Of a stretch of DNA of 64,000 nucleotides, positions 1 to 22,578 are shown in pieces. Every line of letters starts with the position of its first letter. Positions within the stretch are counted from its first letter, which is position 1. A model generated the notes under the pieces. The model worked only from the letters and a program-made list of their open reading frames with translations, was not told the origin of the DNA and did not search any database. Where the stretch lies: positions 16,189-80,188 of the forward strand of contig JAEYSE010000020.1 of the NCBI GenBank assembly GCA_023435025.1. The letters run 5' to 3'. The stretch is from Bacillota bacterium (lineage in GTDB: Bacteria > Bacillota > Clostridia > Christensenellales > CAG-138). The translations under genes were made by a program, and so were the position numbers.

Positions 1-243
1 CCCTCCACCGCGACACTTTCCACCGTGGATGGCGTGACCGCCGAAAAGCCGCTGCACTTCTTCCTGGAGCGCTATATGGCGGCCTACCAGCAGGAGATCA
101 AGTCCTTTGTGGATGCGGTCATAAACGATACGCCTACCGAGGTGGATGTCAACGATGGGCTGCAGCCCGTATTAATCGGTCTTGCGGCAAAACGCTCCAT
201 GGAGCAGGGTCGCCCAGTCAAGATTTCCGAGGTTTCACTCTAG
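1..243 (+). CDS. Gfo/Idh/MocA-family oxidoreductase (inositol 2-dehydrogenase-like), C-terminal fragment; 5' end lies outside the window
   Basis: Frame 1 is open from base 1; the track ORF 25..243 starts at an internal GTG. The tail HFFLERYMAAYQQEIKSFVDAV...GRPVKISEV resembles the C-terminal domain of IolG-like dehydrogenases. Confidence 0.6.
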   Translation, partial: PSTATLSTVDGVTAEKPLHFFLERYMAAYQQEIKSFVDAVINDTPTEVDVNDGLQPVLIGLAAKRSMEQGRPVKISEVSL

Positions 244-416
244 ACGGGCCGGGCCATGATGGCGCCATCTGAGACGTGGATACTGTCCGGCCTTGCAGGA
301 TGTGGGAAAGCCCTATGAACAAAAAAGAAAAGGGATTCCTGAATACCGGTTTGGGCGGGCGGCTAAGAGGACGCGTTGCGGCGGTCCTCTGTGTCCGGCA
401 ATCTGCTAGCCAAATC

Positions 417-1310: not shown

Positions 1311-1326
1311 TCGCGTAAATGATTAG

Positions 1327-1366
1327 GGGCTGTCTAAAAGCACATAACATGCTCAGTAGACAGCCC
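1327..1366. terminator. Stem-loop between convergent genes (possible bidirectional terminator)
   Basis: GGGCTGTCTA (1327-1336) pairs perfectly with TAGACAGCCC (1357-1366). The downstream U-tract is weak. Confidence 0.45.
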
Positions 1367-1432
1367 TTCCGTTCTAACGGTGACACATGGGGCTTCCAAT
1401 AAAGCGCAGGCGTTGGATAGCCCCATCACTGT

Positions 1433-1876
1433 TTAGCAAGCCGAAGATTTCGTTCGCTTTAGCTGATTCTTTCTCCGAATCAGCCAATAAATACCCCAGC
1501 TCATGAGGTTGCCCAAAACAGTGGGCGGCAGCAAGTACATAAGCATCATTTGCCGGGCAATCAGCCGGTCAGCTTCGTCTACTCTATAAAACAACCCAAG
1601 TACCAAAAAATAAGCGATAAAGAACAGGAACGCAACTGGAACAACGCGTTTATCCTGAAAGGGAATCATAAAAAGGCAGCAGATTCCGCATGCTAGGAGC
1701 GCAGCCGCGCTGGGACCAAGCCAGACCTCCCAGAAAGAACCCGTAACCGGTCCCGACAGCAGGATGGCGGGGAGCATGTATGCCAGCACAAATATCACAA
1801 TAAACAATAGGCTCATTGTAAAGCTGATGATCATCAGCGGGCTTTTTACTTTGCCGTCCTTCATGAAAAGTCCCAT
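1433..1876 (-). CDS. Small polytopic membrane protein, unknown function (paralog of 10064..10546)
   Basis: Hydrophobic segments throughout. The N-terminal region MKDGKVKSPLMIISFTMSLLFIVIFVLAYML aligns with TENGRVKSTLLIYSFSLSILFVAIYLLSYLM of the other copy. Last gene of the long operon. Start is uncertain (1876/1864/1927). Confidence 0.6.
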   Translation of the reverse strand: MGLFMKDGKVKSPLMIISFTMSLLFIVIFVLAYMLPAILLSGPVTGSFWEVWLGPSAAALLACGICCLFMIPFQDKRVVPVAFLFFIAYFLVLGLFYRVDEADRLIARQMMLMYLLPPTVLGNLMSWGIYWLIRRKNQLKRTKSSAC

Positions 1877-2025
1877 TTGTTTTCCGCCCTTCCCCATCAC
1901 CTGTAAAATCCGCTGATAAAGCCACAAAAGCCTTATCAGCGGATTTCTTTGGCGTTACGGGCTTTTGCTTTTATTGCTGATCTACGCTTACGCGTCAGAT
2001 TATACCCTCACAAAGAGAAAGTTGT

Positions 2026-3267
2026 CTAGCCCTGCAGAGAGATCCAGAAGTCCATGACGTCGGGGAGATTTTCGTAGACGTACATGGGGTTGAAATCCCA
2101 CACGTGCAGGTCGCTCAGCGGCGTGCTGCCTTCAGCCAGCTGCACGTTGTCACGTACGGACCAGCCGCCCAGCGTGTTGAAGGGGCTGAACCCTGCGCCT
2201 GTGCCATCGGCCTCGCCGGTCATCCAGCGGACCAGGAGCTTGGCCGCGTTGGGATGCGGGGCCTCATTGACGATATACAGGTTGTTCTGCGCGGGAATGC
2301 CGGTGGCGGGCAGCATGTTGATGGGCGCCAATACCCAGCCGTCGCTTTCGTTCTTGCGGAGCTTCGAGGAAGCGGCATAGCCGAGTATATCGGCCTTGGT
2401 GCCTGCCGTCCCGACGGACTCACAGATTTCGTCCGATGAGGCGATGAACACAAGGTCATTGGCGACCAGCCGCTTCATCAGCTCGTGGGCCGCGGTTGGG
2501 CAGCCTTCCGAAAGCGTAAGGGCCTCGCCGAACTCGCGCTGATAATCGGCCGCAAGTTCATCGTGGTAGGCGGTAAAGGCGGTGAATATGGCCATGTAGT
2601 TGATGTTGTCGATGGGGTTGCTGATCAGGAGCTTGCCTTTCCATTCAGGCCTTGTGAGATCCCACCAACTGTCTACCGGAGGTCCGTCCGGATATGCCTC
2701 GTAATTGTAGAACCACTGATTCAGCTCGATATAGAGGGGCATGGCGTAGGTTAGATAATTGGGGTTGCTGATTGTCTTGACGATGTCGTCGGGATAATAG
2801 TTGTGGAATATCCCGGTGGCTACCTTTTCAATATAGAGCCCGCCGTCCTGGTCTTTGCAGTGGATGACGTCCGCGTTGCGTATGCCCGATTCATATTCGC
2901 GGGTGATTTTCTCAAGGAGTTCATTGGTGGAAATGTCATACGCATCGCATATCACGCCGGGATACTGCGCTTCGAAGCTCTCCTTCACCTGCACGCAGCG
3001 GCTGGATATGGAATACAGCACGACTGTTCCTTCCTGCTTGGCAAGCTCATAAAGCTCGTCAACGGTTTGTGAACCGGTGGTAATCATGTTTTCTTCTGCC
3101 CAGGTGGTGACCGCCGGCTCCGGGAGAGGCGTAGCCTCGGCTTCTACTGCAGGCGCTTCGGAGGGAGGGGCTTCCTGCTCGGTTTGCACGGGCTGCTGTG
3201 CGCAACCGACACAGGATAGTATGAGCAACAACACGGTCAACAGTGAGATGATCGATCTGGTCTTCAT
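2026..3267 (-). CDS. ABC importer substrate-binding lipoprotein, FbpA/AfuA-like class (cassette 1)
   Basis: Lipobox LLILSCVGCAQ, a Pro/Ala/Glu-rich linker, then a family-1 solute-binding fold (TVVLYSISS...). About 35-40% identical by eye to the 10624..11928 product. Confidence 0.8.
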   Translation of the reverse strand: MKTRSIISLLTVLLLILSCVGCAQQPVQTEQEAPPSEAPAVEAEATPLPEPAVTTWAEENMITTGSQTVDELYELAKQEGTVVLYSISSRCVQVKESFEAQYPGVICDAYDISTNELLEKITREYESGIRNADVIHCKDQDGGLYIEKVATGIFHNYYPDDIVKTISNPNYLTYAMPLYIELNQWFYNYEAYPDGPPVDSWWDLTRPEWKGKLLISNPIDNINYMAIFTAFTAYHDELAADYQREFGEALTLSEGCPTAAHELMKRLVANDLVFIASSDEICESVGTAGTKADILGYAASSKLRKNESDGWVLAPINMLPATGIPAQNNLYIVNEAPHPNAAKLLVRWMTGEADGTGAGFSPFNTLGGWSVRDNVQLAEGSTPLSDLHVWDFNPMYVYENLPDVMDFWISLQG

Positions 3268-3350
3268 AGTTCCTCCTTATTCTATTGTCTTGCCCGCCGA
3301 TTCGTCCATCGGCAAACATTGCTTCATATGGAATCTCCGGCGGTCCTCCC

Positions 3351-4478
3351 CTATTCTGTAGCGGCGTATTTGAGCAGCTTGCCGGTTGCCTTGCTGTAAA
3401 CGGTAATCATACGTTCGGGTATCTGGACTCCCACCTTCTGATCGCGTTCATAGCTGGTAATACCAATTGCCTTGGCCAATAGCACCGTTGCGCCAATCTG
3501 CACCTGGACCAACGTTTCCGACCCGGCGGGCTGGCAGGCGTATACGGACCCTAAAAACGCGGTGTTCTCCGTGTTCTTGGAAACCGCGATATGCTCTGGC
3601 CGTATACCCAGTACGCAATCAAATTCGCCGGACTTCGGAAATTCGTTTCCGGTCAGGTCGCCTTGCTCAAACGCGAAGCTTCCAAGATCAGAGATCACGC
3701 GGAGTTTGCCGCCATCATGCTGCGCCTTGGCCTGCACCGTATTGATGCGCGGGTTGCCTATAAAATCCGCTATCCGAAGATCTGCAGGGTTGCTGTAGAC
3801 ATTGATTGGCGTGTCTACCTGAGCAAGCTCACCCTCAAAGAATATGGCGACACGGGTGCTCATGGTCAGTGCCTCAATTTGGTCATGGGTAACGTATATG
3901 ACTGTAGTGCCCAGCTCCTGGTGCAGGCGTTTGAGCTCGGAGCGCATATCGATGCGCAGCTTGGCATCCAGGTTAGAAAGCGGCTCGTCCAGCAGCAGGG
4001 TCTTCGGCTCGCTTACGATTGCGCGGGCAATCGCCACGCGCTGCTGCTGACCCCCGGAAAGCTCGCTCGGGTACCGGTTGACGTATTCGCCGATCTGTAA
4101 GCGCTCCAGCGCGTTTCCCACGCGCCGCTTGATCTCATCCTTTGGCACTTTTTTAATGCAAAGACCAAACGCAACATTGTCGAACACCGTCATATGCGGC
4201 CACAAAGCGTAGGATTGGAACACCAGATTCAGCCCTCGTTTGGACGGCGCTTCAAAGAACAGCTCTTCGGTGTTCACGACCTCGCGGCCGTCCATATGGA
4301 TTTTGCCTCTTTGCGGGCGCTCAAGGCCCGACACCACGCGCAGCGTGGTGGTCTTCCCGCAGCCTGAGGGGCCAAGCAGCGTCATGAACTCGCCGTCCTC
4401 AATCGTAAGATCCAGGCTTTTCAATACGTGGTTGCTTCCGTAATATTTGTCAATGCCCTGTAATACGATTTTGCTCAT
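3351..4478 (-). CDS. ABC importer ATP-binding protein (MalK/FbpC-like, with C-terminal regulatory domain), cassette 1
   Basis: Walker A GPSGCGKTT, signature LSGGQQQR, Walker B LLLDEPLSNLD, H-loop VTHDQ. Closely paralogous to 11963..13081. Confidence 0.92.
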   Translation of the reverse strand: MSKIVLQGIDKYYGSNHVLKSLDLTIEDGEFMTLLGPSGCGKTTTLRVVSGLERPQRGKIHMDGREVVNTEELFFEAPSKRGLNLVFQSYALWPHMTVFDNVAFGLCIKKVPKDEIKRRVGNALERLQIGEYVNRYPSELSGGQQQRVAIARAIVSEPKTLLLDEPLSNLDAKLRIDMRSELKRLHQELGTTVIYVTHDQIEALTMSTRVAIFFEGELAQVDTPINVYSNPADLRIADFIGNPRINTVQAKAQHDGGKLRVISDLGSFAFEQGDLTGNEFPKSGEFDCVLGIRPEHIAVSKNTENTAFLGSVYACQPAGSETLVQVQIGATVLLAKAIGITSYERDQKVGVQIPERMITVYSKATGKLLKYAATE

Positions 4479-4484
4479 TGTCCG

Positions 4485-6323
4485 TTAACCTCCCATACCT
4501 TTGGCGATATCCGCGTTACCAAACCGATTGGTCAGCCAATATACAAACAACACGATGAGGAACATGCACACCGCCACGACGTTGGAGTAAGGCTCCATAT
4601 TGCTGTTGGAGTACGAGAACGCCATGTACGGCAGCGTGGCCAGCTTGGGCGTTACAATCAATATAATCAGGTCGAGTTCCTTCATGATGCTGATGAATAT
4701 CAGCATAAAGCCCGAAATAAACCCTGCCTTGGACAGCGGCAACACAATACGCCCCATGCGTTTGCCAAAGCCCGCGCCTTCTATGGAGGCCGCCTCCTCA
4801 AGCTCCATACCGATCTGCATCATGTTGGCGGTACCCGCGCGGCTTGAGAAAGGCAGGTGTTTGACCACCGAGACCAGCACCATCAGCGCGAATGTGCCGT
4901 AGAGCGAGGGTATCAAAAGTTGAGGCTTCGAGAACATGGAAAGGTAAATCGCGCCGAATGCGATCGAAGGGATCAGGTAGGGCACGAATACCAGCTGCTC
5001 CACCAGGCGGCCGGATATTTTACCTCGGCCACGGGATGTGATATAACCGATCAACTGCCCGCACAGCGTTCCGATTACGGACGTCACGACCACCAGCTTG
5101 AGCGTATTCCATACATTGGTCCAGAACCGCGGGTTCGCGAACACGCCCGGTTCTCCTTCAAATACCTCTGGTAACTGGTGTGCAGCCCCGGCCCAGTAAT
5201 GGAGTGAAAAATTACTCCACGCGTAGACGCCCGGCTTGAGCATAAACGTATCGACCATCAGTATCATGAGCGGCCCGATTACTGCGACGCAAACAAACAG
5301 GACCAAGAGTATTAACAGAACCGGCTTTGCGGCGCCCAGCGAAATCAGCGTATGGCGCCCGCCTTTGCCGCCGATCGTAGCGTAACTTTTCCGCGCGCCG
5401 ATTGCCCGCTGGTTTAAATACACGTTGAGCGCGGCGATGGTAATCAATATCATGGCAATGGCGAAGCCGGTGGTGGTATTTTGCTGTTTGACGGTGGAAT
5501 AGAGCATGGTGGAAATGGTGTAGTAATTTACCTTCATGCCGAGGAAAGCCGGTACGCCGAATGTACCCATGGATTTGGAGAATGTGAGTATGAACGCGGA
5601 AAGTATGGCAGGCAATACAAGCGGCAGCGTAATCCTTTTTAATATTTGAAACTTGCCCGCTCCCGCAATTTCGCCCATTTCCTCAAGCTCACTGTTGATG
5701 GACCCAAGCGCAGCCGATACCAGCAGGTAGGCATACGCGTAATAGTGGACGGTCAGCACGATAATGATCGGTATGGGTCCATAGGCCAGCCAGTCCGGCG
5801 TATCAATGCCTAAAGACGCCAGAAAGCCCATCGATCCGCCCACACGCGCGTTTTTGAACACCGCCATCCATGCCATGGATTTGCACCAGGAAGGCAGCAT
5901 GTATGGAACGATGATCGCGAGCGAAAAAAACTTCTTGAATGGAAGATCGGAGCGCACCATCAGCCACGCGATGCCCGCGCCCAAGCCGATGCTCAGCACG
6001 GATACCGTAATGGCAATCACCAGCGAGTTTACTAGCGGCTTGTACAAAAGCGAGTTGCTGACCTCTGTGAACAACAGGCGGTTCCAGTAAAACAGCGTGA
6101 AGTCTCCGACTTGCGCGCCGGGAATACGGCGAAGATCCTTGTTTGCTGCCTGGAATGTGGTGGAGATCATCTCCAGCAGCGGCACCACAATCAAATACGC
6201 CAGCAGTACAATGGCGACGATTACGATAATGTTGTACGGATTGGTAAACGTATTGATTAAGCCGTTCTTAAATCGTCTGCTTCGTGAAAACCCAAGTGAT
6301 CGCGGGACAGATTCGGGCCTCAT
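4485..6323 (-). CDS. Fused two-domain ABC importer permease (FbpB/AfuB-like), cassette 1
   Basis: 612 aa with two tandem transmembrane halves. Collinear paralog of 13127..14953. Start moved to the ATG at 6323, preceded by AAGGAGGAGCAA. Confidence 0.88.
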   Translation of the reverse strand: MRPESVPRSLGFSRSRRFKNGLINTFTNPYNIIVIVAIVLLAYLIVVPLLEMISTTFQAANKDLRRIPGAQVGDFTLFYWNRLLFTEVSNSLLYKPLVNSLVIAITVSVLSIGLGAGIAWLMVRSDLPFKKFFSLAIIVPYMLPSWCKSMAWMAVFKNARVGGSMGFLASLGIDTPDWLAYGPIPIIIVLTVHYYAYAYLLVSAALGSINSELEEMGEIAGAGKFQILKRITLPLVLPAILSAFILTFSKSMGTFGVPAFLGMKVNYYTISTMLYSTVKQQNTTTGFAIAMILITIAALNVYLNQRAIGARKSYATIGGKGGRHTLISLGAAKPVLLILLVLFVCVAVIGPLMILMVDTFMLKPGVYAWSNFSLHYWAGAAHQLPEVFEGEPGVFANPRFWTNVWNTLKLVVVTSVIGTLCGQLIGYITSRGRGKISGRLVEQLVFVPYLIPSIAFGAIYLSMFSKPQLLIPSLYGTFALMVLVSVVKHLPFSSRAGTANMMQIGMELEEAASIEGAGFGKRMGRIVLPLSKAGFISGFMLIFISIMKELDLIILIVTPKLATLPYMAFSYSNSNMEPYSNVVAVCMFLIVLFVYWLTNRFGNADIAKGMGG

Positions 6324-6428
6324 TTGCTCCTCCTTAACATGTACTGGTTGGCTTTGCGAAATTACAAAAGAGACATTTTGGCTGAATTGTGCGCTTAAAG
6401 GTGTGTTTGGCCGCAACGCCAAGAAATG

Positions 6429-7469
6429 CTACAGGCGACAGGTTACTACCACTGCGTCGTGGTCGGAAAGTTCCTGGCCGTCGTATATGGAAAGCTCCTT
6501 CGGCTGTCCGGATAGTTCCGTGTGCTTGAATACTGTCTCCACCCGCAGGGGGTTGGAGCAGGTAAGCCCTTTCTGGAAGAACCAGTCCAAATTCAGGCGG
6601 ACGGTGGAGCCGTCGGGCATAGGCTTTCTTCTTGTGGTTTTGTTCATCAGGTTACAATCCGTATACGAATACCCGAATTCTTCCGCGCAGCGCATCAAAG
6701 GCTCCAGCGTCGGGATAATCGCCAAGCGGCGGTCTTGCTCCTCCTCGTTGTGGTAGAACACATTCATGCTGCCCAACGTATCCCCGTTTACGGTATTGGT
6801 GTTCATATCGCCGCCTACCAGTATTGGGATATTGCCGAAATGCTCGTCGGCGCATTCCAAAAGGTAGCGAAGTTGCCGCTCGCGTTCTTCCGGCGTTGCC
6901 CGGTTCTCAAGATGCACGCAAACGAGGCCTATGCGCCTCCCTGCAGCTTCTATTTCCGCCAATATCGCAACCCGCGTCCCCAGGCGGCAGTCATTTTCGC
7001 GGTAAAACCAATCGTACATAATGGGAAGATGCACAAGCTTTGCGTTATGCAAGGGGTATTTTGATAATATGGCATTGCCGTGCCAGCCCAGCGTGTTGCC
7101 GCCCTGGCCCGCCTTGGCGGTAATAAATTCAATGCCGTAGGCATAATTCATGCCGAGCGCTTCCGCGATATCCCGCGTGACATGCTTGTTGTTTGAGCGC
7201 GCCATGCCGTAATCAAGCTCGTTGGCAAGTATGATGTCCGCGTTGCAAAGGTCTGGATGCAGCTGCAAGTAGGGCATGATTTTTTCGGGGCGCGTGCCGC
7301 ATTCCATGTTAAATACCGTTGCGATAAAGGAGGGATCTTCCTTTTTTGCATACGAATTGTTCACTTCAACGCTGAACAATTCCGGTATCCCGGAGATTGC
7401 CTTTAGATGCGGCATCTGGCTCATATTGCTGATTGCGTCCTGTATTCTTTTTAAGTAGTTCTCGGACAT
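6429..7469 (-). CDS. Endonuclease/exonuclease/phosphatase (EEP) family protein, cytoplasmic
   Basis: EEP-type motifs ANELD, GGDMNTN, LDWFF, SDHDAVVV at the C-terminus. No signal peptide. RBS GGGAGGAAAGAC before the ATG. Confidence 0.75.
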   Translation of the reverse strand: MSENYLKRIQDAISNMSQMPHLKAISGIPELFSVEVNNSYAKKEDPSFIATVFNMECGTRPEKIMPYLQLHPDLCNADIILANELDYGMARSNNKHVTRDIAEALGMNYAYGIEFITAKAGQGGNTLGWHGNAILSKYPLHNAKLVHLPIMYDWFYRENDCRLGTRVAILAEIEAAGRRIGLVCVHLENRATPEERERQLRYLLECADEHFGNIPILVGGDMNTNTVNGDTLGSMNVFYHNEEEQDRRLAIIPTLEPLMRCAEEFGYSYTDCNLMNKTTRRKPMPDGSTVRLNLDWFFQKGLTCSNPLRVETVFKHTELSGQPKELSIYDGQELSDHDAVVVTCRL

Positions 7470-7494
7470 GTCTTTCCTCCCAGTGACAAAATAA

Positions 7495-8418
7495 TTATTC
7501 GATCACAAAACGAACCCTGGAATGATACTGAGCCTCTAACCCCAATATGGAAACCGCATCTGTAAACTGAATGCAACCGGCATATTGCTGTAACAACGCG
7601 ATCGCCTCGGCGGACGGGCGGTTGTCCCCCCGGTCATTGGAAACAGAGACTACGGCGTGTTCGGGTCGAAGCTTTTTGAGAAGCTCTTCGGTCAGGGCAC
7701 CCCCGCAGGCGTGATGCGGAACTTTCAGGATATAGCAGGGGTCGTTTTGCTCATAATCCCAAAATTCACTGTAAACGTCTGCAGGCAGCACGATATCCCG
7801 TCCATGATAGGAAAGGCGCAGACGAATACCTGTGATGTTGGTGAACCGCCCCACAAAATCCAGTTCAAAGCGGTCCGGCCTTCCCAACAGGGCGTCATCC
7901 AGCACGCGCCTCTGGCGGGCATAGAGATACTGCTGCTGGCAGGAGATGTCGGTAAAAAGCCCGGGCGTCAGGCAATACCCTTTCCGGCTTTCGTGTACCT
8001 CCTTGAGCCTGCACCCGCACGCCTGAAGCGGTTGCACCGCATCGAGCAGCATGTTGAGCGTATGACATACGCTCTTCGCAGTCTTGGAGTAATCATCCCC
8101 CGGCTTCAGGCGAACGGAGCGCAAGTCGGGGGTCGGCAGGTAAGGCGTCCAAAGCTCATCGATTTCGGCCTGATTGAAAAGCTTCTCCATGCCGCCGATG
8201 TGATCGCGGTGCAGATGCGTCAATACCAGCAGATCGATATGCGAAACGCCTTCTTCGCGCAGATACGTGGCTGCATCGATCCGCCTGGAGTTTGGCTGAA
8301 CGCTGCCGGGCGTAGTATCCCCGCAGTCCACCAGCATACAGAAATGAGAGGAATCCTCTTGCTCCCGGATGAGTATGGCGTCCCCATACCCAATGTTGAT
8401 AAAATCGATCGTCAGCAT
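7495..8418 (-). CDS. MBL-fold metallo-hydrolase, ComEC C-terminal-domain-like (stand-alone)
   Basis: NIGYGDAILI, HxHxDH motif THLHRDHIGG, later KVPHHACGG. No signal peptide or TM segment. Paralog of 43639..44589. Confidence 0.8.
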   Translation of the reverse strand: MLTIDFINIGYGDAILIREQEDSSHFCMLVDCGDTTPGSVQPNSRRIDAATYLREEGVSHIDLLVLTHLHRDHIGGMEKLFNQAEIDELWTPYLPTPDLRSVRLKPGDDYSKTAKSVCHTLNMLLDAVQPLQACGCRLKEVHESRKGYCLTPGLFTDISCQQQYLYARQRRVLDDALLGRPDRFELDFVGRFTNITGIRLRLSYHGRDIVLPADVYSEFWDYEQNDPCYILKVPHHACGGALTEELLKKLRPEHAVVSVSNDRGDNRPSAEAIALLQQYAGCIQFTDAVSILGLEAQYHSRVRFVIE

Positions 8419-8448
8419 AAGTTCCTTTGTATTGCTTGAAATCCGGTA

Positions 8449-9261
8449 CTATCCGGCTTGGTCCGTATAGGTACCGCGGCAGAACATCCGGGGCGCAAGC
8501 AGCAGCGTTTCCCGCTCTGCGCCTTGGCACAGGCGTTCCATCAAAGACACTGCATGGGTCTCAAGCGCAAAGCGGCCGCATCCCACGCTGGTCAGCTTGT
8601 ATTTGGACAACGATGCGAGCGAAACATCCCCGAACCCAAGAAGCGCGATGTCCCTGCCCGGCCGCAATTCCCGCTCCACAATCGCCTGCCATGCGCCAAA
8701 GGCGGTAAAATCATCCTGGGCGGCAATCACCGTGGGCATGCCTCCATCCAGAAGGCTGCGTGTCGCGCAGTAGCTATCCTGCAGTGAGTTTCCCGCAACC
8801 GCAACCGTATGGACGGCGCTGCAGGGGATGCCGCTTTTTTGCGCCCCCAGCAAAAAGCCTTTGAGAAGTTCATCATGGCAGGATGTGGGGTGAAACAGGA
8901 ACACAAGTTTTCTGTGCCCGTTTTTCATCAGGCGTTCCGCGGCCAAAGTGCCTGCTTTTTTCTCATCCATAGAAACAAAACTTATGGATGCGTGCGAGGC
9001 GTTTTGGCCAACAAATACGACGGGAACGCGCAATCCTTCATACAATGCCTTGCTTTGCGCCTGTACCGGCATGGCGAAGATGCCTGAGACATTCGCCGCA
9101 ATCAGCCCGTTTAGGAACCGGGCCTCATTTTTAAAATCCCCCTGCGCGTTACAAATCAGCAGGCAGTCCCCCCGCCTCTCCAGTTCACGCGCAATGTTTT
9201 CAGCGGTTTCCGGATAAAACGGGTTGATGTCGTCCGGAATGATCATGCCATATTGCTTCAT
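8449..9261 (-). CDS. LacI/PBP1-type sugar-binding (effector) domain protein lacking the N-terminal HTH
   Basis: The product begins MKQYGMIIPDDINPFYPE, which is the first strand of the LacI effector domain. The start ATG overlaps the HAD stop (ATGA), and the DNA upstream is HAD coding sequence, leaving no room for an HTH. Confidence 0.7.
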   Translation of the reverse strand: MKQYGMIIPDDINPFYPETAENIARELERRGDCLLICNAQGDFKNEARFLNGLIAANVSGIFAMPVQAQSKALYEGLRVPVVFVGQNASHASISFVSMDEKKAGTLAAERLMKNGHRKLVFLFHPTSCHDELLKGFLLGAQKSGIPCSAVHTVAVAGNSLQDSYCATRSLLDGGMPTVIAAQDDFTAFGAWQAIVERELRPGRDIALLGFGDVSLASLSKYKLTSVGCGRFALETHAVSLMERLCQGAERETLLLAPRMFCRGTYTDQAG

Positions 9262-10022
9262 GCCGTCTTGTTTTCCGCCTCGCGCAGCATTTTCAATATG
9301 GGATATACGTCGTAAATCTCGTTGAGCCTGTAGTCCGGCTGAACGCCGTCCGTACGGGCGTCCCGGTCCGCGGTAAGGAACGAGTCGATTTGCAGCGTAA
9401 GGCCAAACCCGGCGTTTTTGGCGCCTATGACGTCCCGGGATATGGTATCCCCGACATAGGCGCAGTTCTCGGCTTTTGCGCGCATCTGATGAAGCGCTAT
9501 CAAGAATATATTGGAGTTGGGCTTGCGGTAGCCAACTACGCTCGAAAGCGTGACGTCCTCAAAATAAGAGCGAATTCCGTATTCCTCCAGCGTCTCGAAC
9601 ACCTGAAACATGCTGGCGGTGTTGCTGATAACGCCCATCCGCATTCCCATTTCCCGCAGGCCTTCGAGCATTTCCTTTACGCCCGGGCGCATTTTGCGCG
9701 TATAATATGTGATTTCCCACATATAGGCCAGTTCCTCGGAAATGGAAGCCAGTTTCTTCTTATCCACAGGTAAAAAGGGCAAAGCGTATTCCGGCCAGAT
9801 CTGATCGGGTTTTAACTCGACACATGTTTGTTCGCCTAGGATTTTATACCGCTTCATGCCGGCAGATACTTCCGCCCAAAGCGCCGCATCGTCCATAGAC
9901 AGGCAGATGTCATACTTTTGAAGGATACGGCGTATCCCCTTTGCGGTTTCCGCCATCGTTTTTTCGTCGCTGTAGATTTCCTCGAGCGTACCGCCCATGT
10001 CGAACAAGACAGTATCGATCAT
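9258..10022 (-). CDS. HAD-superfamily hydrolase (subfamily IA-like), motif I DxGxT
   Basis: Motif I LFDMGGTL, motif II VISNT, motif III RKPN, motif IV VGDTISRDVIGAKNAGFG. RBS AAGGAG. Confidence 0.85.
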   Translation of the reverse strand: MIDTVLFDMGGTLEEIYSDEKTMAETAKGIRRILQKYDICLSMDDAALWAEVSAGMKRYKILGEQTCVELKPDQIWPEYALPFLPVDKKKLASISEELAYMWEITYYTRKMRPGVKEMLEGLREMGMRMGVISNTASMFQVFETLEEYGIRSYFEDVTLSSVVGYRKPNSNIFLIALHQMRAKAENCAYVGDTISRDVIGAKNAGFGLTLQIDSFLTADRDARTDGVQPDYRLNEIYDVYPILKMLREAENKTA

Positions 10023-10063
10023 ACATACTCCTTTAAAAGCCGTTGTCCGGCTAACTTACATAC

Positions 10064-10546
10064 TCAATGCTTCTTTTTGTACTTTACGTACAGAAGCGTG
10101 GATACTGCGCCGCCAATCACAAGAGGCGGCAGCACAACCATGGAAAAGAGGCCTAAGAAAGTGGGCATTTCATTTTGCGTAAGGCTTACTGCAATCCCTA
10201 TGCCTCCCACAAGTGCGTAAAACAGCAAGAAGAGATAGGCGCCGGGTACGAGCCTTTTCTCCTTGACCACAAAATGTAACGAACAGCACAGCGCGGTTCC
10301 CGCGATTGCGGGAAGAACGCTTTCAAGGAACGTGGTGAATTTCGTCCCGATACGCGGCAGGAAGAACGCGTCGATCGGGTCAATGAGCATCAGGTACGAA
10401 AGCAGGTATATTGCAACGAACAGAATGCTCAGCGAGAAGGAGTAAATAAGCAGCGTGCTTTTTACCCTGCCGTTTTCGGTAAACAGAAATATGCTCCAGA
10501 ACTTATCGGCCTTTGTCTGTTTCCGGACTGCCTTTGCCTGATCCAT
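10064..10546 (-). CDS. Small polytopic membrane protein, unknown function (paralog of 1433..1876)
   Basis: About four hydrophobic segments. Occupies the same position (immediately after the binding-protein gene) as its paralog. Start at 10546 is preceded by AAAGGAAG. Confidence 0.6.
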   Translation of the reverse strand: MDQAKAVRKQTKADKFWSIFLFTENGRVKSTLLIYSFSLSILFVAIYLLSYLMLIDPIDAFFLPRIGTKFTTFLESVLPAIAGTALCCSLHFVVKEKRLVPGAYLFLLFYALVGGIGIAVSLTQNEMPTFLGLFSMVVLPPLVIGGAVSTLLYVKYKKKH

Positions 10547-10623
10547 GGATTTCAATCTTCCTTTTGAATGCGGGCGGGCAGTGCCCGCCCGCATCCGGTT
10601 TTTTTAGTTCTATGGTTGCGCTC

Positions 10624-11928
10624 TTACATATTGGGGTTCTGGTCGAGCCAATAGACCCAGAAGTCCTGAACGTCGAGGAATATGTCATACACGCCCTTCA
10701 TGTTGCCCGGTATGGCGCCGCTTTCCTTCACGGAGAACGGATTATTGGGGTTGACATAATCGTCGCGGATGGACCAGTTGCCCTGTTTGGTGAACGGCTC
10801 AAAGCCAATGCCCTGGCCGTCCGCTTCGCCCATCAGGAACCGGATGAAAAGGCGCGCGCCCGCGGGGTTGTCGCAGCCGGTTACCACATACAGGTAATTG
10901 CAGTTCTGCACGTTGGGATAGGGCAGAAGCTTCGTTACCCAATCAATGGTATAGCCGTTTTCCTCGCGGTTGGTGATCTTACCCGCAGAGCAGAAGCCCA
11001 GCCTGGGCTTACTCGGGTCGGTCGCGGCGTTGACGGCTTCCACGATTTCATCACCGTCGCCTATGAACGTCAGTTTCAGCTGCGAGAGCCTGTACAGGAA
11101 TTCATAGCCCGCGTTCTTTTCAGGGACGTTCGCGGTCTTCGTGCTGTCATAGGTATACTCTATGGGCTTGCCGTACTTGGCTTCATATGCCTGCGCCAGC
11201 TGATCGGCGTTGAGTATCATGCTGGAGTAGAATGTCAGGTAGGTGGGGTCGGCAGACAGGTTTTCGCATACGATATCATATTTCTGGTTGCCATTTGCGT
11301 CCAGTTCAATGATATCCCACCAGTTGGAGACCGGTGCGCCGTTGGGGAATGCCGTGGTGTTGTAATACCAGAAGTTCATGCTCGCATAGAACGGCATGCC
11401 GTAACCCAGCAGGCTGGGATCGATGTGCGAGACGATATCGCTGGGATAATACGTTTCAAGATAACCAAACGGGAAAAAGTCGTAGTAGATTTCGCCGTTG
11501 CCGTCCTTGCACTGCAGGACGTCCGCATTGATATTACCGGATTTCGCTTCAATCTCAATCTTGCTTACCGCTTCCCCCTGGTCCAGGTCGATGGCTTCGG
11601 CGGTCAGCCCCGGGTATGCTTCCATGAACGTATCACAGGTTTTCTGCATGCGGCTGGAAATGGTATAGACGGTTACCTTGCCGCCCTCCTTTTTTGCCTG
11701 CTCATAGAGCTCTGCCGATGTCATGTTGTTCCATTTGTCATCGGTAACCACATTGGAGTCAGTCGCCTCGGGCGCGGCGGTAGCTTCGGCGGCAGGGGCT
11801 GCTGGGGCTGCGGGCGCTGCGGGTTCCGGAGTAGGATTGCTGCTGGCGGGAGCTGTAGGCGTACATCCTACCAATGCCAATGTGCAAACCATTAATACAA
11901 CCAGGGTAAGCGTGAGCAGTTTCTTCAT
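10624..11928 (-). CDS. ABC importer substrate-binding lipoprotein, FbpA/AfuA-like class (cassette 2)
   Basis: MKKLLTLTLVVLMVCTLALVGC lipobox, PAAPAAPAAPAA linker, KVTVYTISS... fold. Start trimmed to 11928 (RBS GAAAGGAG). Confidence 0.8.
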   Translation of the reverse strand: MKKLLTLTLVVLMVCTLALVGCTPTAPASSNPTPEPAAPAAPAAPAAEATAAPEATDSNVVTDDKWNNMTSAELYEQAKKEGGKVTVYTISSRMQKTCDTFMEAYPGLTAEAIDLDQGEAVSKIEIEAKSGNINADVLQCKDGNGEIYYDFFPFGYLETYYPSDIVSHIDPSLLGYGMPFYASMNFWYYNTTAFPNGAPVSNWWDIIELDANGNQKYDIVCENLSADPTYLTFYSSMILNADQLAQAYEAKYGKPIEYTYDSTKTANVPEKNAGYEFLYRLSQLKLTFIGDGDEIVEAVNAATDPSKPRLGFCSAGKITNREENGYTIDWVTKLLPYPNVQNCNYLYVVTGCDNPAGARLFIRFLMGEADGQGIGFEPFTKQGNWSIRDDYVNPNNPFSVKESGAIPGNMKGVYDIFLDVQDFWVYWLDQNPNM

Positions 11929-11962
11929 GGCTGTTCTCCTTTCAGTTATATAAACCCTGCGG

Positions 11963-13081
11963 TTATACCGCAAGCTTGATAAGCTTCCCGCATGCCTTGT
12001 CATAAACATTGAGCTTTCCGGGATCTATAACCAAGCGCACCTTTTCGTTGATTTGGTAGTCCATGATGCCGATCTGCTTGGAAAGGAATTCGGCGTTGCC
12101 TACGGTCAACGTAACCAGCGTTTCGGAGCCTGCGGGCTGGCTGGCGTAGATGCTTGCCTCTATCCCGTCGCCGGTGCCGCCCCGCTCAATACGTACCTGC
12201 TCGGGGCGCAGGCCGAACACGCAGGGGAACTCTCCGGAAGGCAGGGGCACATCCGACATGTCCTTTTTGCAGTAGCGGAACGTGCCAATCGCGCAGGCGG
12301 CGGTCAGATGATCGCCGTCGTAGGACGCGGTCCCCTGAAGGAAATTGATGCGGGGGTTGCCGATGAAGTCTGCCGCCATCAGGGTGCCGGGGTTCATATA
12401 CAGATCCAGCGGCGTTGCGACCTGGGCCAGTACACCCTCGGAATACAGCGCGATCTTGGTGGACATCGTAAGCGCCTCCACCTGGTCGTGCGTGACATAT
12501 ATGATGGTGGTACCCATTTCGTTGTGCAGACGCTTCAATTCGGAACGCATGTCGATGCGCAGCTTGGCGTCCAGGTTAGATAGCGGTTCGTCCAATAGCA
12601 GCAGCTTCGGCTCGGAAGCGATGGCGCGGGCGATCGCCACGCGCTGCTGCTGGCCGCCGGAAAGCTCGTTGGGGTACCGCTTTTCGAATTCGCCGATCCG
12701 CATCATTTCCAGCGCTCTTTTGACCATCTTGTCAATTTGGCTGGCGGACATTTTTTTAATCTTCAGGCCGAACGCCACGTTCTCGTATACCGTCATATGC
12801 GGCCAAAGGGCATAGCTTTGGAACACAAGGTTGAGCTCGCGTTTGCTCGGCTCCTCAAAATAGGCGAGGTCGCAGTTGATAACCTCCCGCCCGTCCATGC
12901 GCATAATGCCGTTCTGCGGCTTTTCAAGCCCCGAAACCACGCGCAGCGTGGTCGTCTTTCCGCAGCCTGACGGCCCCAATAGCGTCATGAAGTCTCCGTC
13001 TTCGATCGTCAGGGACAAATCCTTTAATACATGGTTGTCGCCGAAATACTTGTCAATATGCTCCAGTTCGATTCTACTCAT
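11963..13081 (-). CDS. ABC importer ATP-binding protein, cassette 2
   Basis: Walker A GPSGCGKTT, LSGGQQQR, LLLDEPLSNLD. High identity to 3351..4478 along the full length. Confidence 0.92.
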   Translation of the reverse strand: MSRIELEHIDKYFGDNHVLKDLSLTIEDGDFMTLLGPSGCGKTTTLRVVSGLEKPQNGIMRMDGREVINCDLAYFEEPSKRELNLVFQSYALWPHMTVYENVAFGLKIKKMSASQIDKMVKRALEMMRIGEFEKRYPNELSGGQQQRVAIARAIASEPKLLLLDEPLSNLDAKLRIDMRSELKRLHNEMGTTIIYVTHDQVEALTMSTKIALYSEGVLAQVATPLDLYMNPGTLMAADFIGNPRINFLQGTASYDGDHLTAACAIGTFRYCKKDMSDVPLPSGEFPCVFGLRPEQVRIERGGTGDGIEASIYASQPAGSETLVTLTVGNAEFLSKQIGIMDYQINEKVRLVIDPGKLNVYDKACGKLIKLAV

Positions 13082-13126
13082 TGCGTATTTTCCTCTCTTT
13101 CCGCATTCACAAACGGCTTAAACTAA

Positions 13127-14953
13127 TCAACCCCAGCTCTTGCCGATATCGGCGCCGCCGAATTTATTGGCAACCCAGTAAGATACCAGCACGAATAAAA
13201 GCACACATACCGAGATCGCGTCAGCCATCTGGGGGAGCGCCTCGCGCGAATATTGGAATGCGAGATACGATAGCGTACGGTTCTCCGGTGTGATCAAAAG
13301 TATAATAAGATCCAGTTCTTTCGCGATGCTGATGAATACAAGCATAAAACCCGAAAGGAAGCCCTGTTTCGCAAGCGGTATGATGATCCGCCCCATTCTT
13401 CGCCAGAAGCTCGCGCCTGCGATATCTGCGGCTTCCTCCAGCTCCACCCCGATCTGCATCATATTCGCGGTCCCCGCACGGCTTGCGAATGGGAAGTGCT
13501 TGACCACGCTTGCCAGCACGAGCAGCGTGAATGTGCCGTACAGGGATGGAATAATGCCGTGCGGCATGCTCCACATGGCGAGGTAGATCGCCGCAAACGC
13601 GATGGCTGGCATCAGGTACGGGATAAACACGAGCTGCTCGGTGAGCTTCCCATACCATTTCCCACGGCCGCGAGAGCTGATATATCCCAGGAACTGCCCG
13701 CAAAACGCCGTGATAATCGATGAGATAAGTGTGAGTTTGATCGTGTTCCACAGGCCCCTTGAGAATTCCTGATTTTTGAATATGCCCGGATAATGGCTGG
13801 TGGTGCTGGAAAAATCAGCGTCGCCAATCCAGTTGTATAGCGTCAGGTTGTCTAGCCCGTAACCTGCGCCCGTGCTTTTCTGGAACGTTTCCATGACCAG
13901 TATGAACATGGGCATGAACATGGCGATGACCAGAAACAGGGCCAGGAATATCATGATATACGGCTTGGCCTTGCCCAGCGGGATGAGAGCGTGCTTGGTG
14001 CCCTTGCCGCCGAGCGTTTCATAGGACTTTCGTGTGCCCACCAGCCGCTGGTTCGCGAATATGGTGCCCGATGCCAGAACGATTAAAAGCAGCGCCATTG
14101 CGTAGCCAAGCCCTGCCTGCCTACCGTTGATGCAGTCGTGCATTTTGGTGGCCAGCGTGAAGTAGCCGATGCGCAAGCCCAGGTTGGCGGCCACGCCGAA
14201 GGAACCCACGGATTTTGAAAGCGTCATGATGGTTGCGGATAGCACCGCGGGGGCGACTAGAGGCAGCGTAATGCTTTTTAATATCTGCAGCTTGCTTGCA
14301 CCCTGTATTTCGCCCATTTCTTCAAGTTCGCTGTTGACGGAGCGGAGAGAGCTTGAAACCATAATGTAAGAGAAGGCGTAATAGTGCAGCACCATGACCA
14401 GTATGATCGCCACCGGACCATACGCCAGCCAGTCCGGTATGGTCAGCCCCAGGCCCTCTAAAAAGCCGGGCGAGCCGCTTCTTGCGTTGCGGAATACCGC
14501 AAGCCAGGACATCGCTTTGCACCAGGACGGTATCATGTAGGGAACAATGATGCCGATGGAAAGAAATTTCTTCCCCGGTAAATCGCTGCGCACCATTACC
14601 CAGGCAAGTATCGAGCCTAGTGGTACGGAAATGAGCGCCGTAAAAAAGCCTATAATCAGGGAGTTGATCAGCGGCTTCCAGAGCGTAGCTGAGGAAAGGT
14701 TGCTCGCGAAAAGCTGCTTCCAATAATAGAGCGTGAAGTCCCCAACCTTGCCGTCCACACGCCTTAATTCACTCGCTGCGAGCGTGAATGTGGTCCGGAG
14801 CATCTCGATAAGTGGGATAACGATCAGCACAATTAACAGCACAAGGGAAATCAGCACAATCATGTTGAACGGATTCTTAACGACCTGCAGGACCTTGTTT
14901 TTGATCTTCACTGTGGACCAGGGCTTCTTGGCCTGTTTACCGCTCACGTTCAC
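13127..14953 (-). CDS. Fused two-domain ABC importer permease, cassette 2
   Basis: 608 aa, collinear with 4485..6323. Many shared blocks, e.g. SIGIIVPYMIPSWCKAMSWLAVFRNA vs SLAIIVPYMLPSWCKSMAWMAVFKNA. GTG start (14953 or 14947). Confidence 0.88.
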   Translation of the reverse strand: MNVSGKQAKKPWSTVKIKNKVLQVVKNPFNMIVLISLVLLIVLIVIPLIEMLRTTFTLAASELRRVDGKVGDFTLYYWKQLFASNLSSATLWKPLINSLIIGFFTALISVPLGSILAWVMVRSDLPGKKFLSIGIIVPYMIPSWCKAMSWLAVFRNARSGSPGFLEGLGLTIPDWLAYGPVAIILVMVLHYYAFSYIMVSSSLRSVNSELEEMGEIQGASKLQILKSITLPLVAPAVLSATIMTLSKSVGSFGVAANLGLRIGYFTLATKMHDCINGRQAGLGYAMALLLIVLASGTIFANQRLVGTRKSYETLGGKGTKHALIPLGKAKPYIMIFLALFLVIAMFMPMFILVMETFQKSTGAGYGLDNLTLYNWIGDADFSSTTSHYPGIFKNQEFSRGLWNTIKLTLISSIITAFCGQFLGYISSRGRGKWYGKLTEQLVFIPYLMPAIAFAAIYLAMWSMPHGIIPSLYGTFTLLVLASVVKHFPFASRAGTANMMQIGVELEEAADIAGASFWRRMGRIIIPLAKQGFLSGFMLVFISIAKELDLIILLITPENRTLSYLAFQYSREALPQMADAISVCVLLFVLVSYWVANKFGGADIGKSWG

Positions 14954-15000
14954 ACCTCTTTCTTTCTGGGTAGAAATTTGCCTGTATGGCGGCCTTCGTT

Positions 15001-15783
15001 TTAGTGGCTTTCATTACGATGGCTTTCATTATAGGACCGGATAATGCCGATAACCTCCGGCAGCGCTTTTATGGTATAGTCCGGCTGGTAGCCGCACCCT
15101 TCAAGCTTGCGTTCACGTTCCAGCACATGCGGCTTTGCTTCGCTGAACAATATGCGTATCATCAGGCCCCATCCCGCGTTCTTTACGCCGATGACGTCCC
15201 GTGAAATGGTATCTCCCACATAGGCCATTTCCTCGGCCTTCAAACCCATGGAATTCCTGCAAAGATCGAATATTCGCCTGTCCGGCTTTCTCAGTCCGCA
15301 TACGCTGGATAGGAGTATATACTCAAAGTAGCCGGAAACGCCGTATTCCTGCAGGAAATGAGGCGCATACGTCCTCGAAAGCGTGTTGCTGAGTATGGCC
15401 AAGCGCATGCCCTGCTCTCGTAGACCCTGCAGGCACTCGTGCAGGCCCTCTCGCGGAGCGTCTTGCGCGTGGTTACACCAAAGAAAGCTTAAGTCCTCTG
15501 AAATGGGGAACAGCTGCTCTGTTGTCGCGCCATAATCCTTTAAAAAGAAGTTACGCCATGCCTCAAGCGGGGGGATTTCCTCTACCAGTTGTTCGGAAGC
15601 ACGCTTGCGGGCATGGTCGGCTTCCGAGAGTTTTAAGGCGAAAGTCTCGACTGGGTCGGGTATGCGAACTCCTCGGAGCTCAAGAAGATTTTTGATCTTT
15701 CTCGCACAGAGAAGGTGTCGTTTCGGGTCTTCTGTCAATGTGTGAATGACGCCGCCCATATCAAATACAACTGCCTGAATCAA
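15001..15783 (-). CDS. HAD-superfamily hydrolase, motif I DxGxV; first gene of the long operon
   Basis: VVFDMGGVIHTL, ILSNT, RKPD, VGDTISRDVIGVKNAGWG. Preferred start is the TTG at 15783 (RBS AAGGCGGG, 8-nt spacer). The track ORF extends to a TTG at 15855 that has no RBS. Confidence 0.8.
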   Translation of the reverse strand: MIQAVVFDMGGVIHTLTEDPKRHLLCARKIKNLLELRGVRIPDPVETFALKLSEADHARKRASEQLVEEIPPLEAWRNFFLKDYGATTEQLFPISEDLSFLWCNHAQDAPREGLHECLQGLREQGMRLAILSNTLSRTYAPHFLQEYGVSGYFEYILLSSVCGLRKPDRRIFDLCRNSMGLKAEEMAYVGDTISRDVIGVKNAGWGLMIRILFSEAKPHVLERERKLEGCGYQPDYTIKALPEVIGIIRSYNESHRNESH

Positions 15784-15884
15784 AGAGTTCACCCGCCTTG
15801 CGGTTTGGTTTAAAGGTAGGACTGGAATGGAATAGCGGTCTGAATTATGTGACAATTAGAATGACAGTGGATTGGAATGGTTTA

Positions 15885-15898
15885 TGCAAACGATTGCG
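15885..15898. promoter_or_regulatory. LacI-family operator-like site TGCAAACGATTGCG
   Basis: Lies 20 nt downstream of the -10 of the operon promoter. It shares the TGCAAACG half-site with the sites at 22565 and 26692, and with one half of 44675. Confidence 0.5.
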
Positions 15899-15917
15899 TT
15901 AAAAATTATTTGTACTT

Positions 15918-15946
15918 ATCATAATGGCATATCTTTATTCTGTCAA
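15918..15946 (-). promoter_or_regulatory. Sigma-A-type promoter of the 13-gene operon
   Basis: On the minus strand: TTGACA (15946-15941), 17-nt spacer, TATGAT (15923-15918). Confidence 0.6.
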
Positions 15947-16180
15947 TTGCTTTTTTATGTTCAATTTTAAATAAAACACGGTTTCTCCCTAATTATCGGC
16001 AAAATACTAGTATAAACAGCTAAAACAGGACCGTTCGCGGCGTTTGTTGGGCAGGGAGCATCTCCCAGGCGGAAGGGAAGCATTGCATCGTTTGGGGGAA
16101 GATTTTTGCGGCATTTTATGCATACGTTTACGAATGTCGGTTCTTCATGACAGGGGCCCGAGGCATATGCCCGAATGTCG

Positions 16181-22564: not shown

Positions 22565-22578
22565 TGCAAACGTTTTCG
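22565..22578. promoter_or_regulatory. LacI-family operator-like site TGCAAACGTTTTCG (autoregulatory position)
   Basis: Imperfect palindrome (10 of 14 positions symmetric) located 8 nt downstream of the -10 and just upstream of the lacI RBS. Confidence 0.55.

Follow-up and report, generated by a model that had tools for sequence, protein, structure and literature searches.

We analysed a window of 64,000 nucleotides from a Bacillota bacterium of the Christensenellales (contig JAEYSE010000020.1, positions 16,189 to 80,188), which carries an operon of ATP-binding cassette (ABC) importer genes between positions 1433 and 15946. Our account of this locus, which we hold with slightly better than even confidence, is that it imports inositol phosphates (InsPs) and then dephosphorylates them in the cytoplasm. 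The operon comprises 13 co-oriented open reading frames (ORFs) on the minus strand, running from 15783 to 1433 in the order given by an earlier note made from the sequence of the same DNA. A five-gene unit is repeated (HAD, fused double permease, ATPase, lipoprotein substrate-binding protein (SBP) and small membrane protein) and, as that note described, its second copy holds a three-gene insertion: a LacI domain lacking the helix-turn-helix (HTH), an MBL-fold hydrolase and an EEP-fold phosphoesterase. The genes of the operon are as follows.

15001 to 15783, minus strand: HADa, cytoplasmic HAD-IA hydrolase with motif I FDMGGV (Pfam Hydrolase/HAD_2); TTG start at 15783 after AAGGCGG.
13127 to 14953, minus strand: P1, fused double permease of 608 aa (Pfam, 2 x BPD_transp_1).
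11963 to 13081, minus strand: A1, ABC ATPase with a TOBE tail (Pfam ABC_tran and TOBE).
10624 to 11928, minus strand: S1, lipoprotein SBP with an LVGC lipobox and a Pro/Ala linker (Pfam SBP_bac_1; start refined).
10064 to 10546, minus strand: m1, small membrane protein of 160 aa with ~4 hydrophobic segments and no Pfam family.
9258 to 10022, minus strand: HADb, cytoplasmic HAD-IA hydrolase with motif I FDMGGT (Pfam).
8449 to 9261, minus strand: LacI-family ligand-binding core of 270 aa without an HTH (Peripla_BP_1/3 matches only).
7495 to 8418, minus strand: MBL-fold hydrolase with an HLHRDH motif, similar to the ComEC C-terminus; lineage-specific.
6429 to 7469, minus strand: cytoplasmic EEP-fold phosphoesterase (Pfam), 51% identical to its Treponema primitia orthologue.
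4485 to 6323, minus strand: P2, fused double permease of 612 aa from the ATG at 6323 (Pfam, two BPD_transp_1).
3351 to 4478, minus strand: A2, ABC ATPase with a TOBE tail (Pfam ABC_tran and TOBE).
2026 to 3267, minus strand: S2, lipoprotein SBP (Pfam), the founder member of a large family that carries the annotation 'iron(III) transport system SBP'.
1433 to 1876, minus strand: m2, small membrane protein of 147 aa, recognised by sequence comparison.

Both S1 and S2 have lipoprotein-type signal peptides at the N-terminus. The earlier note gave the gaps between genes as 0–85 nt; start codons supported by ribosome-binding sites give -4 to 149 nt. The best NCBIfam model for P1 was PhnU2, at a score far under its cut-off, and no NCBIfam model matched either SBP, the small proteins, the EEP or the PHP-domain protein described below.

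The two units have diverged unevenly. By BLASTP, the ATPases are 63% identical, the permeases 55%, the HADs 36%, the SBPs 33% and the small proteins 31%. On these identities the repeat and its asymmetric divergence are real, and the SBPs have, as had been claimed, diverged far more than the ATPases and permeases. The arrangement had also been called a tandem duplication; the repeated unit stands, but a recent copy does not, the cassettes being ancient paralogues. Cassette 2 is nearer to its orthologue in T. primitia (permease 68%, ATPase 72%, SBP 57%, small protein 37%) than to cassette 1 (33–63%), which indicates that two long-diverged subfamilies have been juxtaposed. A cassette-1-type permease (82%) and ATPase (78%) are also present in another Clostridiales genome (locus L048).

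An exhaustive profile search with the small membrane protein recovered 181 representatives at 50% identity from 1.84 billion proteins; a word-indexed homologue search gave 3 matches. In the exhaustive search none of the 181 representatives was fused to transporter parts. All stand alone, and the clue to their role that a fusion (Rosetta stone) would give is thus absent. The LacI-domain protein (8449–9261) lacks the HTH, as first reported: it aligns to residues 65–333 of the T. primitia LacI and does not match PF00356. The hinge is lost as well. In a relative of the window with 94% SBP identity (locus L001), the orthologue of this protein is only 69% identical, while its neighbours are 82–94% identical. 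The core may be a decaying copy, or it may serve as an anti-repressor or ligand sink.

The earlier note ended the functional unit at 15946. Related genes and the same operator run on, however, to ~26,705. The upstream relatives were found by tblastn with the T. primitia neighbours and identified through Pfam, NCBIfam and PDB searches.

16181 to 19647, minus strand: heterodimeric ABC exporter pair, ABC_membrane plus ABC_tran twice (Pfam), between the kinase and the 13-gene operon.
19899 to 20789, minus strand: TM0415-type ribokinase-family kinase, homologue of the pyrophosphate (PPi)-dependent myo-inositol kinase.
20790 to 21518, minus strand: PHP-domain phosphoesterase (Pfam).
21538 to 22545, minus strand: full-length LacI-family repressor, sharing 54% identity with the LacI of the corresponding T. 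primitia locus.
22724 to 24343, minus strand: circularly permuted homologue of cofactor-independent phosphoglycerate mutase (iPGM), 460 bits on TIGR01307.
24309 to 26587, minus strand: HADc, HADd and HADe, three tandem HAD paralogues with motif I FDxG[GN]T (Pfam).

The best explanation is that the functional locus spans ~26.7 kb under LacI control, with the 13-gene region as its importer part. Its promoter and operator elements are given below.

15918 to 15946, minus strand: sigma-70-type promoter of the 13-gene operon, TTGACA-17-TATGAT, 11/12 consensus positions.
15885 to 15898: LacI-type operator palindrome TGCAAACGATTGCG, immediately 3' of the operon -10 box.
22565 to 22578: operator TGCAAACGTTTTCG of the LacI gene itself, 5' of the full-length repressor gene.
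26692 to 26705: perfect operator palindrome CGCAAACGTTTGCG, next to a TTGACA box, upstream of HADe.

The strong promoter claimed for the operon held up, the TTGACA-17-TATGAT at 15946–15918 being the best consensus match in 1–17000. Within the 64 kb there are only two more matches to TGCAAACGATTGCG with up to 2 mismatches, both in promoter regions of the locus. This sharing of one operator by three promoters argues for a single LacI-controlled regulon spanning three transcription units. Generic LacI/cre sites look similar, and the motif so does not in itself identify the regulator. A weaker operator-like site with 3 mismatches (TGCATACGTTTACG, 16119–16132) lies between the exporter pair and the operon promoter.

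The operon had been described as having one promoter and one terminator, with the far-end hairpin (1327–1366) as the only convincing one. Two internal hairpins are stronger (-30.3 and -34.6 against -25.1 kcal/mol), and their conservation speaks against that description.

10568 to 10594, minus strand: GC-rich hairpin between S1 and m1, -30.3 kcal/mol, z -6.9; coding strand without a U-tract.
~1901 to 1947, minus strand: hairpin of 19 bp between S2 and m2, with UUUUAC directly after it, -34.6 kcal/mol, z -7.9; terminator- or attenuator-like.
1327 to 1366: terminal hairpin between the converging ends of the operon and a PpiC-type rotamase gene (276–1310, plus strand), -25.1 kcal/mol; minus strand without a U-tract.

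Both internal hairpins are kept in L001 although the surrounding spacers have diverged, and the hairpin at 1901–1947 carries a compensatory T-A to C-G change there. Such conservation marks them as functional elements; they probably tune SBP expression relative to that of the downstream genes, either as partial terminators or by stabilising the 3' end. A promoter-like TAGACA-18-TATAAT (2028–1999, minus strand), which overlaps the S2 stop upstream of the hairpin and m2, is deleted in L001 and was not counted. There was no Rfam match in window positions 1–28000, and the 5' untranslated region of the operon folded no better than shuffled sequences.

To place the locus in a wider context, we scanned one genome per GTDB species and obtained 80 loci, whose ORFs were classified with the window proteins; neighbour counts out of 33 refer to the loci with full 10-kb flanks. 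The importer was linked to HAD genes in 28 of the 33, to LacI in 28, to the small membrane protein in 27, to EEP in 23, to a TM0415-like kinase in 15 and to PHP in 14. The earlier note preferred organophosphate to metal uptake, a preference that would have suffered had phosphoesterases been unconserved beside such cassettes. At least one phosphoesterase lies beside the cassette in 29 of the 33, which supports the preference. The commonest HAD beside the cassette is of the HADb type (52/80 loci), and PHP occurs in 22/80. The small protein gene stands directly 3' of the last SBP gene in 52 of the 72 loci with enough downstream sequence, and many related loci have a full-length LacI gene next to EEP. 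Carriers include Oscillibacter, Dysosmobacter, Butyricicoccus, Agathobaculum, Oscillospiraceae and Christensenellales, together with Lachnospiraceae, Coprococcus, Treponema/Breznakiella and Flexilinea.

One pointer to inositol is the kinase at 19899–20789, a match at E 1.7e-38 to the Thermotoga maritima protein TM0415 (PDB 1VK4/5YSP). The donor site of TM0415 is marked by five signature residues (K171, F221, R229, R232 and M266) and an RxGRGD motif (PMC5931981). In the window kinase K171, R229, R232 and M266 are kept, F221 is replaced by Leu and GRTGRGDTC is identical. The myo-inositol contacts D11, N78, Q141 and R145 and the catalytic D234 are also retained in the HMMER alignment. At the left edge of the window lies a fragment of an inositol gene.

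1 to 243, plus strand: 3' end of iolG (inositol 2-dehydrogenase), convergent with the operon; 92% identical over 71 aa to the IolG of L001.

L001 is collinear with the window at this edge, and its own IolG scores 485 bits on TIGR04380 (cut-off 355). Its IolN (292 bits, cut-off 245) and IolM (510 bits, cut-off 450) also pass; for IolO the best match, 195 bits, is below the cut-off of 300. Judged by these profile scores, the L001 iol genes are a Thermotoga-type inositol pathway. Another LacI gene lies beside L001 IolG/O/N/M.

A further link to inositol comes from Treponema (L021 and L022) and two metagenome loci (L084 and L085). Here a co-oriented string comprises an IolG-like gene, EEP, HAD, permease, ATPase, four tandem SBPs and a MINPP-type phytase, without the small membrane protein.

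L021, 9995 to 16612: Treponema-type string.
L022, 9995 to 16338: Treponema-type string.
L084 and L085, 10001 to 16704: Treponema-type strings.

The terminal protein has a signal peptide and is a histidine acid phosphatase with RHGSRN and HAE motifs; it matches the Bacteroides thetaiotaomicron MINPP (4FDT) at E 1e-34. In the 64-kb window itself there is no MINPP or PTP-type phytase. The inositol account thus draws on the TM0415-type kinase, the PHP, the LacI, the three additional HADs, the iolG at the window edge and the MINPP of the relatives. Together these sharpen the earlier organophosphate proposal, and the context points to InsPs rather than hexose phosphates, nucleotides or phosphonates. 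The importers' ligand would most likely be lower InsPs released from phytate, not iron.

A neutral ligand would sever this link between importer and phosphatases: the cassettes would import free cyclitols or another neutral compound, and the phosphatases and kinase would serve some other pathway, co-regulated but unrelated. The inositol context alone does not demand a phosphorylated substrate, and MotA-type opine binders have the same SBP fold. Yet L084 and L085 carry a CUT2 sugar-type ABC system, together with a second IolG-like gene, directly upstream of the string, and those organisms therefore already own a candidate transporter for free inositol. Dysosmobacter welbionis, which ferments myo-inositol, likewise uses a different, sugar-type inositol binding protein (PMC13311982). 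Import of a neutral compound would also leave unexplained the tight operonic coupling of HAD and EEP, and a natural fusion of the two (below). We regard it as highly improbable.

We examined the SBPs for the nature of the ligand. An AlphaFold (AF2) model of S2 built on 30 homologues had a pLDDT of 91.4 and shows the two-lobe fold of cluster-D type-II SBPs (Fe3+/polyamine/phosphonate/opine). Foldseek matched it with probability 1.0 to IbpS, MctA, FbpA, AfuA, PotD and MotA, in a fold class that also includes HitA/FutA and VcA0625; identity was 12–20% and the query-normalised TM 0.5–0.6 for all. The earlier assignment of the architecture to the Fe3+/AfuA/PotD/phosphonate group (one SBP, one fused double permease with two BPD_transp_1 domains, one ATPase) is thus upheld, together with the SBP fold class. 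By sequence, however, the SBPs are not of AfuA or FbpA type. In single-sequence searches against the PDB, S1 found nothing meaningful and S2 gave marginal matches only, the best being MctA at E 0.006. A search of all PDB sequences with a profile built from 30 family members found the metal-citrate SBP MctA of Thermus thermophilus (7F6E) and IbpS of Dickeya dadantii (6FJL/6HHB) at E ~3e-9 and the glucose 6-phosphate (G6P) binder VcA0625 at E 3e-5; the AfuA-related P5PA was at 0.14, FbpA-type proteins were at E>=0.01 and AfuA was undetected at E<=1. MctA and IbpS are also the closest solved relatives by structure (Foldseek E 1e-16, TM 0.55–0.74), at an identity of only 18–20%. These profile results place the SBP family on a separate branch, neither AfuA nor FbpA.

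The residues at the presumed ligand site differ from those of metal binders. The ligand positions of MctA that have been probed by experiment (S26/D28, T199 and Y221) align with an S86-I-S-S-R90 loop, S277/S278 and S300-S-K302-x-R304 of the locus family. These segments are invariant, with Ser, Arg and Lys in place of Asp and Tyr, although the second alignment segment is weak. Thus D28 of MctA corresponds to a gap or Ser, and Y221 to Ser300, the latter in the weak segment. The S86–R90 loop follows strand 1 and the S300–R304 segment lies at a helix N-terminus. A site rich in Ser, Arg and Lys would suit an anionic, non-metal ligand.

These observations bear directly on the public annotation, by which the locus would encode a ferric-iron importer of the FbpABC type. 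Among the scored candidates there were 786 SBP homologues at E<=1e-3, many of them named iron(III) transporter, and 'iron(III) transport system substrate-binding protein' is the JGI/KEGG-style name of many homologues. The locus shares its transporter architecture and SBP fold class with FbpABC, HitABC and SfuABC, and FbpA-type structures are among the fold matches. FbpA binds iron through an adjacent Tyr-Tyr pair plus a His and a Glu. The earlier note had asked whether these ligands are retained; the invariant Tyr-Tyr pair is missing from the 30-sequence alignment, and the locus family has no conserved Tyr-Tyr/His/Glu iron site. There is no Fur box in any promoter region, the scan matches being at chance level and within coding DNA, and the promoters have LacI operators in control. 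The cassette is, moreover, consistently tied to phosphoesterases and inositol genes. We rejected the iron hypothesis on the genomic context and the Fur scan, and consider it extremely improbable.

A closer comparison is AfuABC of Actinobacillus pleuropneumoniae and Citrobacter rodentium, which has the same architecture and SBP fold class and was mis-annotated as an iron transporter, yet imports an intact organophosphate (PMC4546632). AfuA coordinates the sugar with the triad H205/D206/E229 and binds phosphate with S37 and T150 (PMC4546632). On this model the locus would import common sugar phosphates, such as G6P, fructose 6-phosphate (F6P), sedoheptulose 7-phosphate (S7P) and pentose phosphates, with the HADs as sugar phosphatases. 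AfuA (4R72–4R74) and VcA0625 (8X1A) are indeed among the fold matches, and the HADs weakly match sugar-phosphatase NCBIfam models. However, the fold similarity to AfuA (TM 0.57–0.59, 15–17% identity) is no better than to iron, polyamine and opine binders, and there is no sequence relationship to AfuA in the profile search. The locus SBP is instead a Gram-positive/spirochaete lipoprotein, ~60–100 residues longer, and the locus adds a conserved small membrane protein, cytoplasmic phosphoesterases and inositol genes. Glycolysis could take up imported sugar phosphates directly, which would make an EEP, a PHP and up to five HADs superfluous, and the kinase, iol genes and MINPP indicate inositol. 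We predict an InsP as the ligand here, rather than G6P, F6P or S7P, and judge sugar phosphate import to be quite unlikely.

The phosphoesterases themselves were compared with known enzymes. All five HAD paralogues share the motif I FD[MLV]G[GN][TV], which has Gly where the Asp+2 general acid normally stands; they keep the nucleophile Asp, the Lys (RKP) and the GDxxxRD motif. In E. coli, YihX is active although its motif I is DLGNV. By this analogy, phosphatase activity of the HADs is plausible, not assured. The EEP has a basic invariant set (R91, R162, R166, R190, R196 and T279-R280-R281-K282). In a structure search INPP5B ranked second (E 1e-12, TM 0.48–0.56), with SMase, TDP2, nocturnin and CNOT6L equivalent. 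A metagenomic protein of 593 aa (P0218) is a natural fusion of a HAD domain and an EEP domain of the locus family.

The same enzymes might instead act on nucleotide-derived organophosphates (nucleotides, pAp, NADP or short oligonucleotides), with MBL, EEP and PHP as nucleases or phosphodiesterases, the HADs as nucleotidases and the kinase acting on the freed sugar or nucleoside. In keeping with this, the MBL is similar to the ComEC nuclease domain, the EEP is as close to nocturnin, CNOT6L and TDP2 as to INPP5B, the HADs match the YjjG nucleotidase model at E 1e-22 and the best LacI matches are RbsR, PurR and CytR. But the MBL is lineage-specific, found in 3/80 loci; the kinase retains the inositol-contacting residues of TM0415; nucleoside phosphorylase or hydrolase genes do not recur among the neighbours; and the MINPP and iol genes would be left unexplained. 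Nucleotide import thus seems very unlikely.

The nearest alternative is an importer of an inositol phosphodiester, for example glycerophosphoinositol from deacylated phosphatidylinositol, which EEP or GDPD would cleave and whose products the HADs would dephosphorylate. It comes nearest because GDPD genes flank the cassette in four Oscillibacter loci. The phosphodiesterases SMase and TDP2 are among the top EEP fold matches, and the inositol context is equally compatible. Even so, GDPD is rare (4/80 loci), five HADs and a PHP are phosphomonoesterase-type enzymes and more than one diester requires, and the MINPP of the Treponema operons works on inositol polyphosphate monoesters, not diesters. 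We consider this alternative unlikely.

If the locus imports InsPs, the following scheme may be proposed. Its observed basis is the gene content and conserved synteny, the paralogy, the fold classes, the operators and hairpins and the signature residues of the kinase; we infer the ligand, the direction of the kinase and the roles of the individual phosphoesterases and of the small membrane protein. Extracellular phytases would turn phytate into lower InsPs, using an own MINPP in Treponema and community enzymes in the case of the window organism. The lipoprotein SBPs would bind particular InsP species, with the isomers or phosphorylation states divided between S1 and S2 here and among the four paralogues in Treponema. 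The InsPs would reach the cytoplasm through two paralogous type-I ABC importers, each of SBP, double permease, TOBE ATPase and small membrane protein. There, five HADs of one subfamily, the EEP and the PHP, and here also the MBL and perhaps the permuted iPGM, would strip the phosphates. The freed myo-inositol would enter the adjacent Thermotoga-type IolG/IolM/IolN/IolO pathway. The TM0415-type PPi-dependent kinase would interconvert inositol and inositol monophosphate (InsP1): it may make InsP1 from inositol for another purpose or, speculatively, run in reverse and recover the last phosphate as PPi. One LacI repressor, answering an intermediate, would govern the three promoters via the shared palindrome, and the hairpins after each SBP gene would set the SBP-to-downstream expression ratio.

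Several observations weigh against InsP import. The Asp+2 general acid is missing in five of five HADs. The EEP fold match is generic, INPP5B being no better than SMase, TDP2 or nocturnin at a TM of ~0.5. About half of the full-flank loci lack the TM0415-like kinase and PHP within 10 kb, and the GDPD genes in the Oscillibacter loci would equally fit a glycerophosphodiester. The adjacency of iolG/M/N/O is seen only in the window lineage, with just IolG-like genes in Treponema within 10 kb elsewhere, and the MINPP linkage is confined to the Treponema lineage. By sequence comparison the SBP is without a close solved relative, its best match being the E ~3e-9 to IbpS/MctA. A kinase beside phosphatases looks futile unless it is reversed or acts on another intermediate. 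For TM0415 itself the Km for myo-inositol is 12 mM, and the authors of that work question whether its true acceptor is inositol (PMC5931981).

The boldest version of the scheme would combine the first bacterial inositol-polyphosphate ABC importer, a new four-helix subunit, a position-by-position dephosphorylation cascade, a kinase run in reverse (InsP1 + Pi -> inositol + PPi, where Pi is inorganic phosphate) and SBP paralogues that partition InsP isomers. As a whole we regard this combination as unlikely.

Other neighbours of the cassettes were also noted. The exporter pair recurs beside the cassette in 6–10 of the 80 loci. Homologues of the permuted iPGM (58–70% identity) are found in 7 related loci. 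Its residues 31–322 match 219–509 of the Bacillus stearothermophilus iPGM (1EJJ), and residues 332–538 match 5–213; the new termini fall inside the transferase domain, and the catalytic-Ser motif GNSEAGH is retained. Genes that handle phosphate lie nearby too, in keeping with InsP import: MgtC-family genes adjoin 9 loci (including L003 at 13799–14500, L045, L034, L037, L077, L079 and L080), PiT and PhoU_div pairs occur in 4 loci, and in L086 Ppx and PPK1 lie downstream of the cassette. Elsewhere in the window, a second ABC importer (39624–42030, minus strand) has an ATPase 44–48% identical to the T. primitia ATPases, with permease matches of only ~23–25%, and a third LacI-family gene lies at 44756–45736 (minus strand).

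Two further known systems resemble the proposed one in part. The T. maritima locus TM0411–TM0421 has the same kinase family with the PPi and inositol signatures, IolG/M/N/O and a linked ABC importer. In Thermotoga the permeases of this importer, InoEFGK, are two separate proteins, and its SBP is of another type. To our knowledge, the HAD/EEP/PHP set and the small membrane protein are absent from the Thermotoga inositol locus. The other resemblance concerns phytate in the gut, which is degraded by the MINPP of B. thetaiotaomicron (4FDT), an enzyme with a homologue in the Treponema versions of the locus, and by the periplasmic phytase of Mitsuokella jalaludinii (PMC7618129). Known phytate systems finish dephosphorylation outside the cytoplasm and then take up inositol and Pi, whereas we propose that partly dephosphorylated InsPs are imported and finished inside the cell. 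The distinctive parts of the locus are the small membrane protein family, the basic EEP, the Asp+2-less HAD subfamily and the link to a PPi-kinase. Our search of a paper library found no description of the locus or of a bacterial InsP ABC importer; a 2025 review remarks that specific phytate transporters are lacking, in a statement that concerns host absorption (PMC12482443).

Seeds store their phosphorus mainly as phytate, which is also a major component of the diet; in current models all of its microbial dephosphorylation occurs outside the cytoplasm. The locus is carried by abundant butyrate producers (Butyricicoccus, Agathobaculum, Oscillibacter and Dysosmobacter) and by termite and gut Treponema, and it defines as orphan families the small membrane protein, the Asp+2-less HADs, the basic EEP and the circularly permuted iPGM. 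Butyricicoccus and Ruminococcaceae are among the phytate-enriched taxa (PMC7618129). If InsP import is correct, it would help to account for this enrichment and would provide a route of cross-feeding in which phytase producers supply InsP scavengers. The widespread annotation as 'iron(III) transporter' would then need correcting, and the family of PPi-dependent inositol kinases would gain a physiological setting. Were the kinase in fact to run in reverse, PPi-dependent anaerobes would regain part of the phosphoester energy of phytate.

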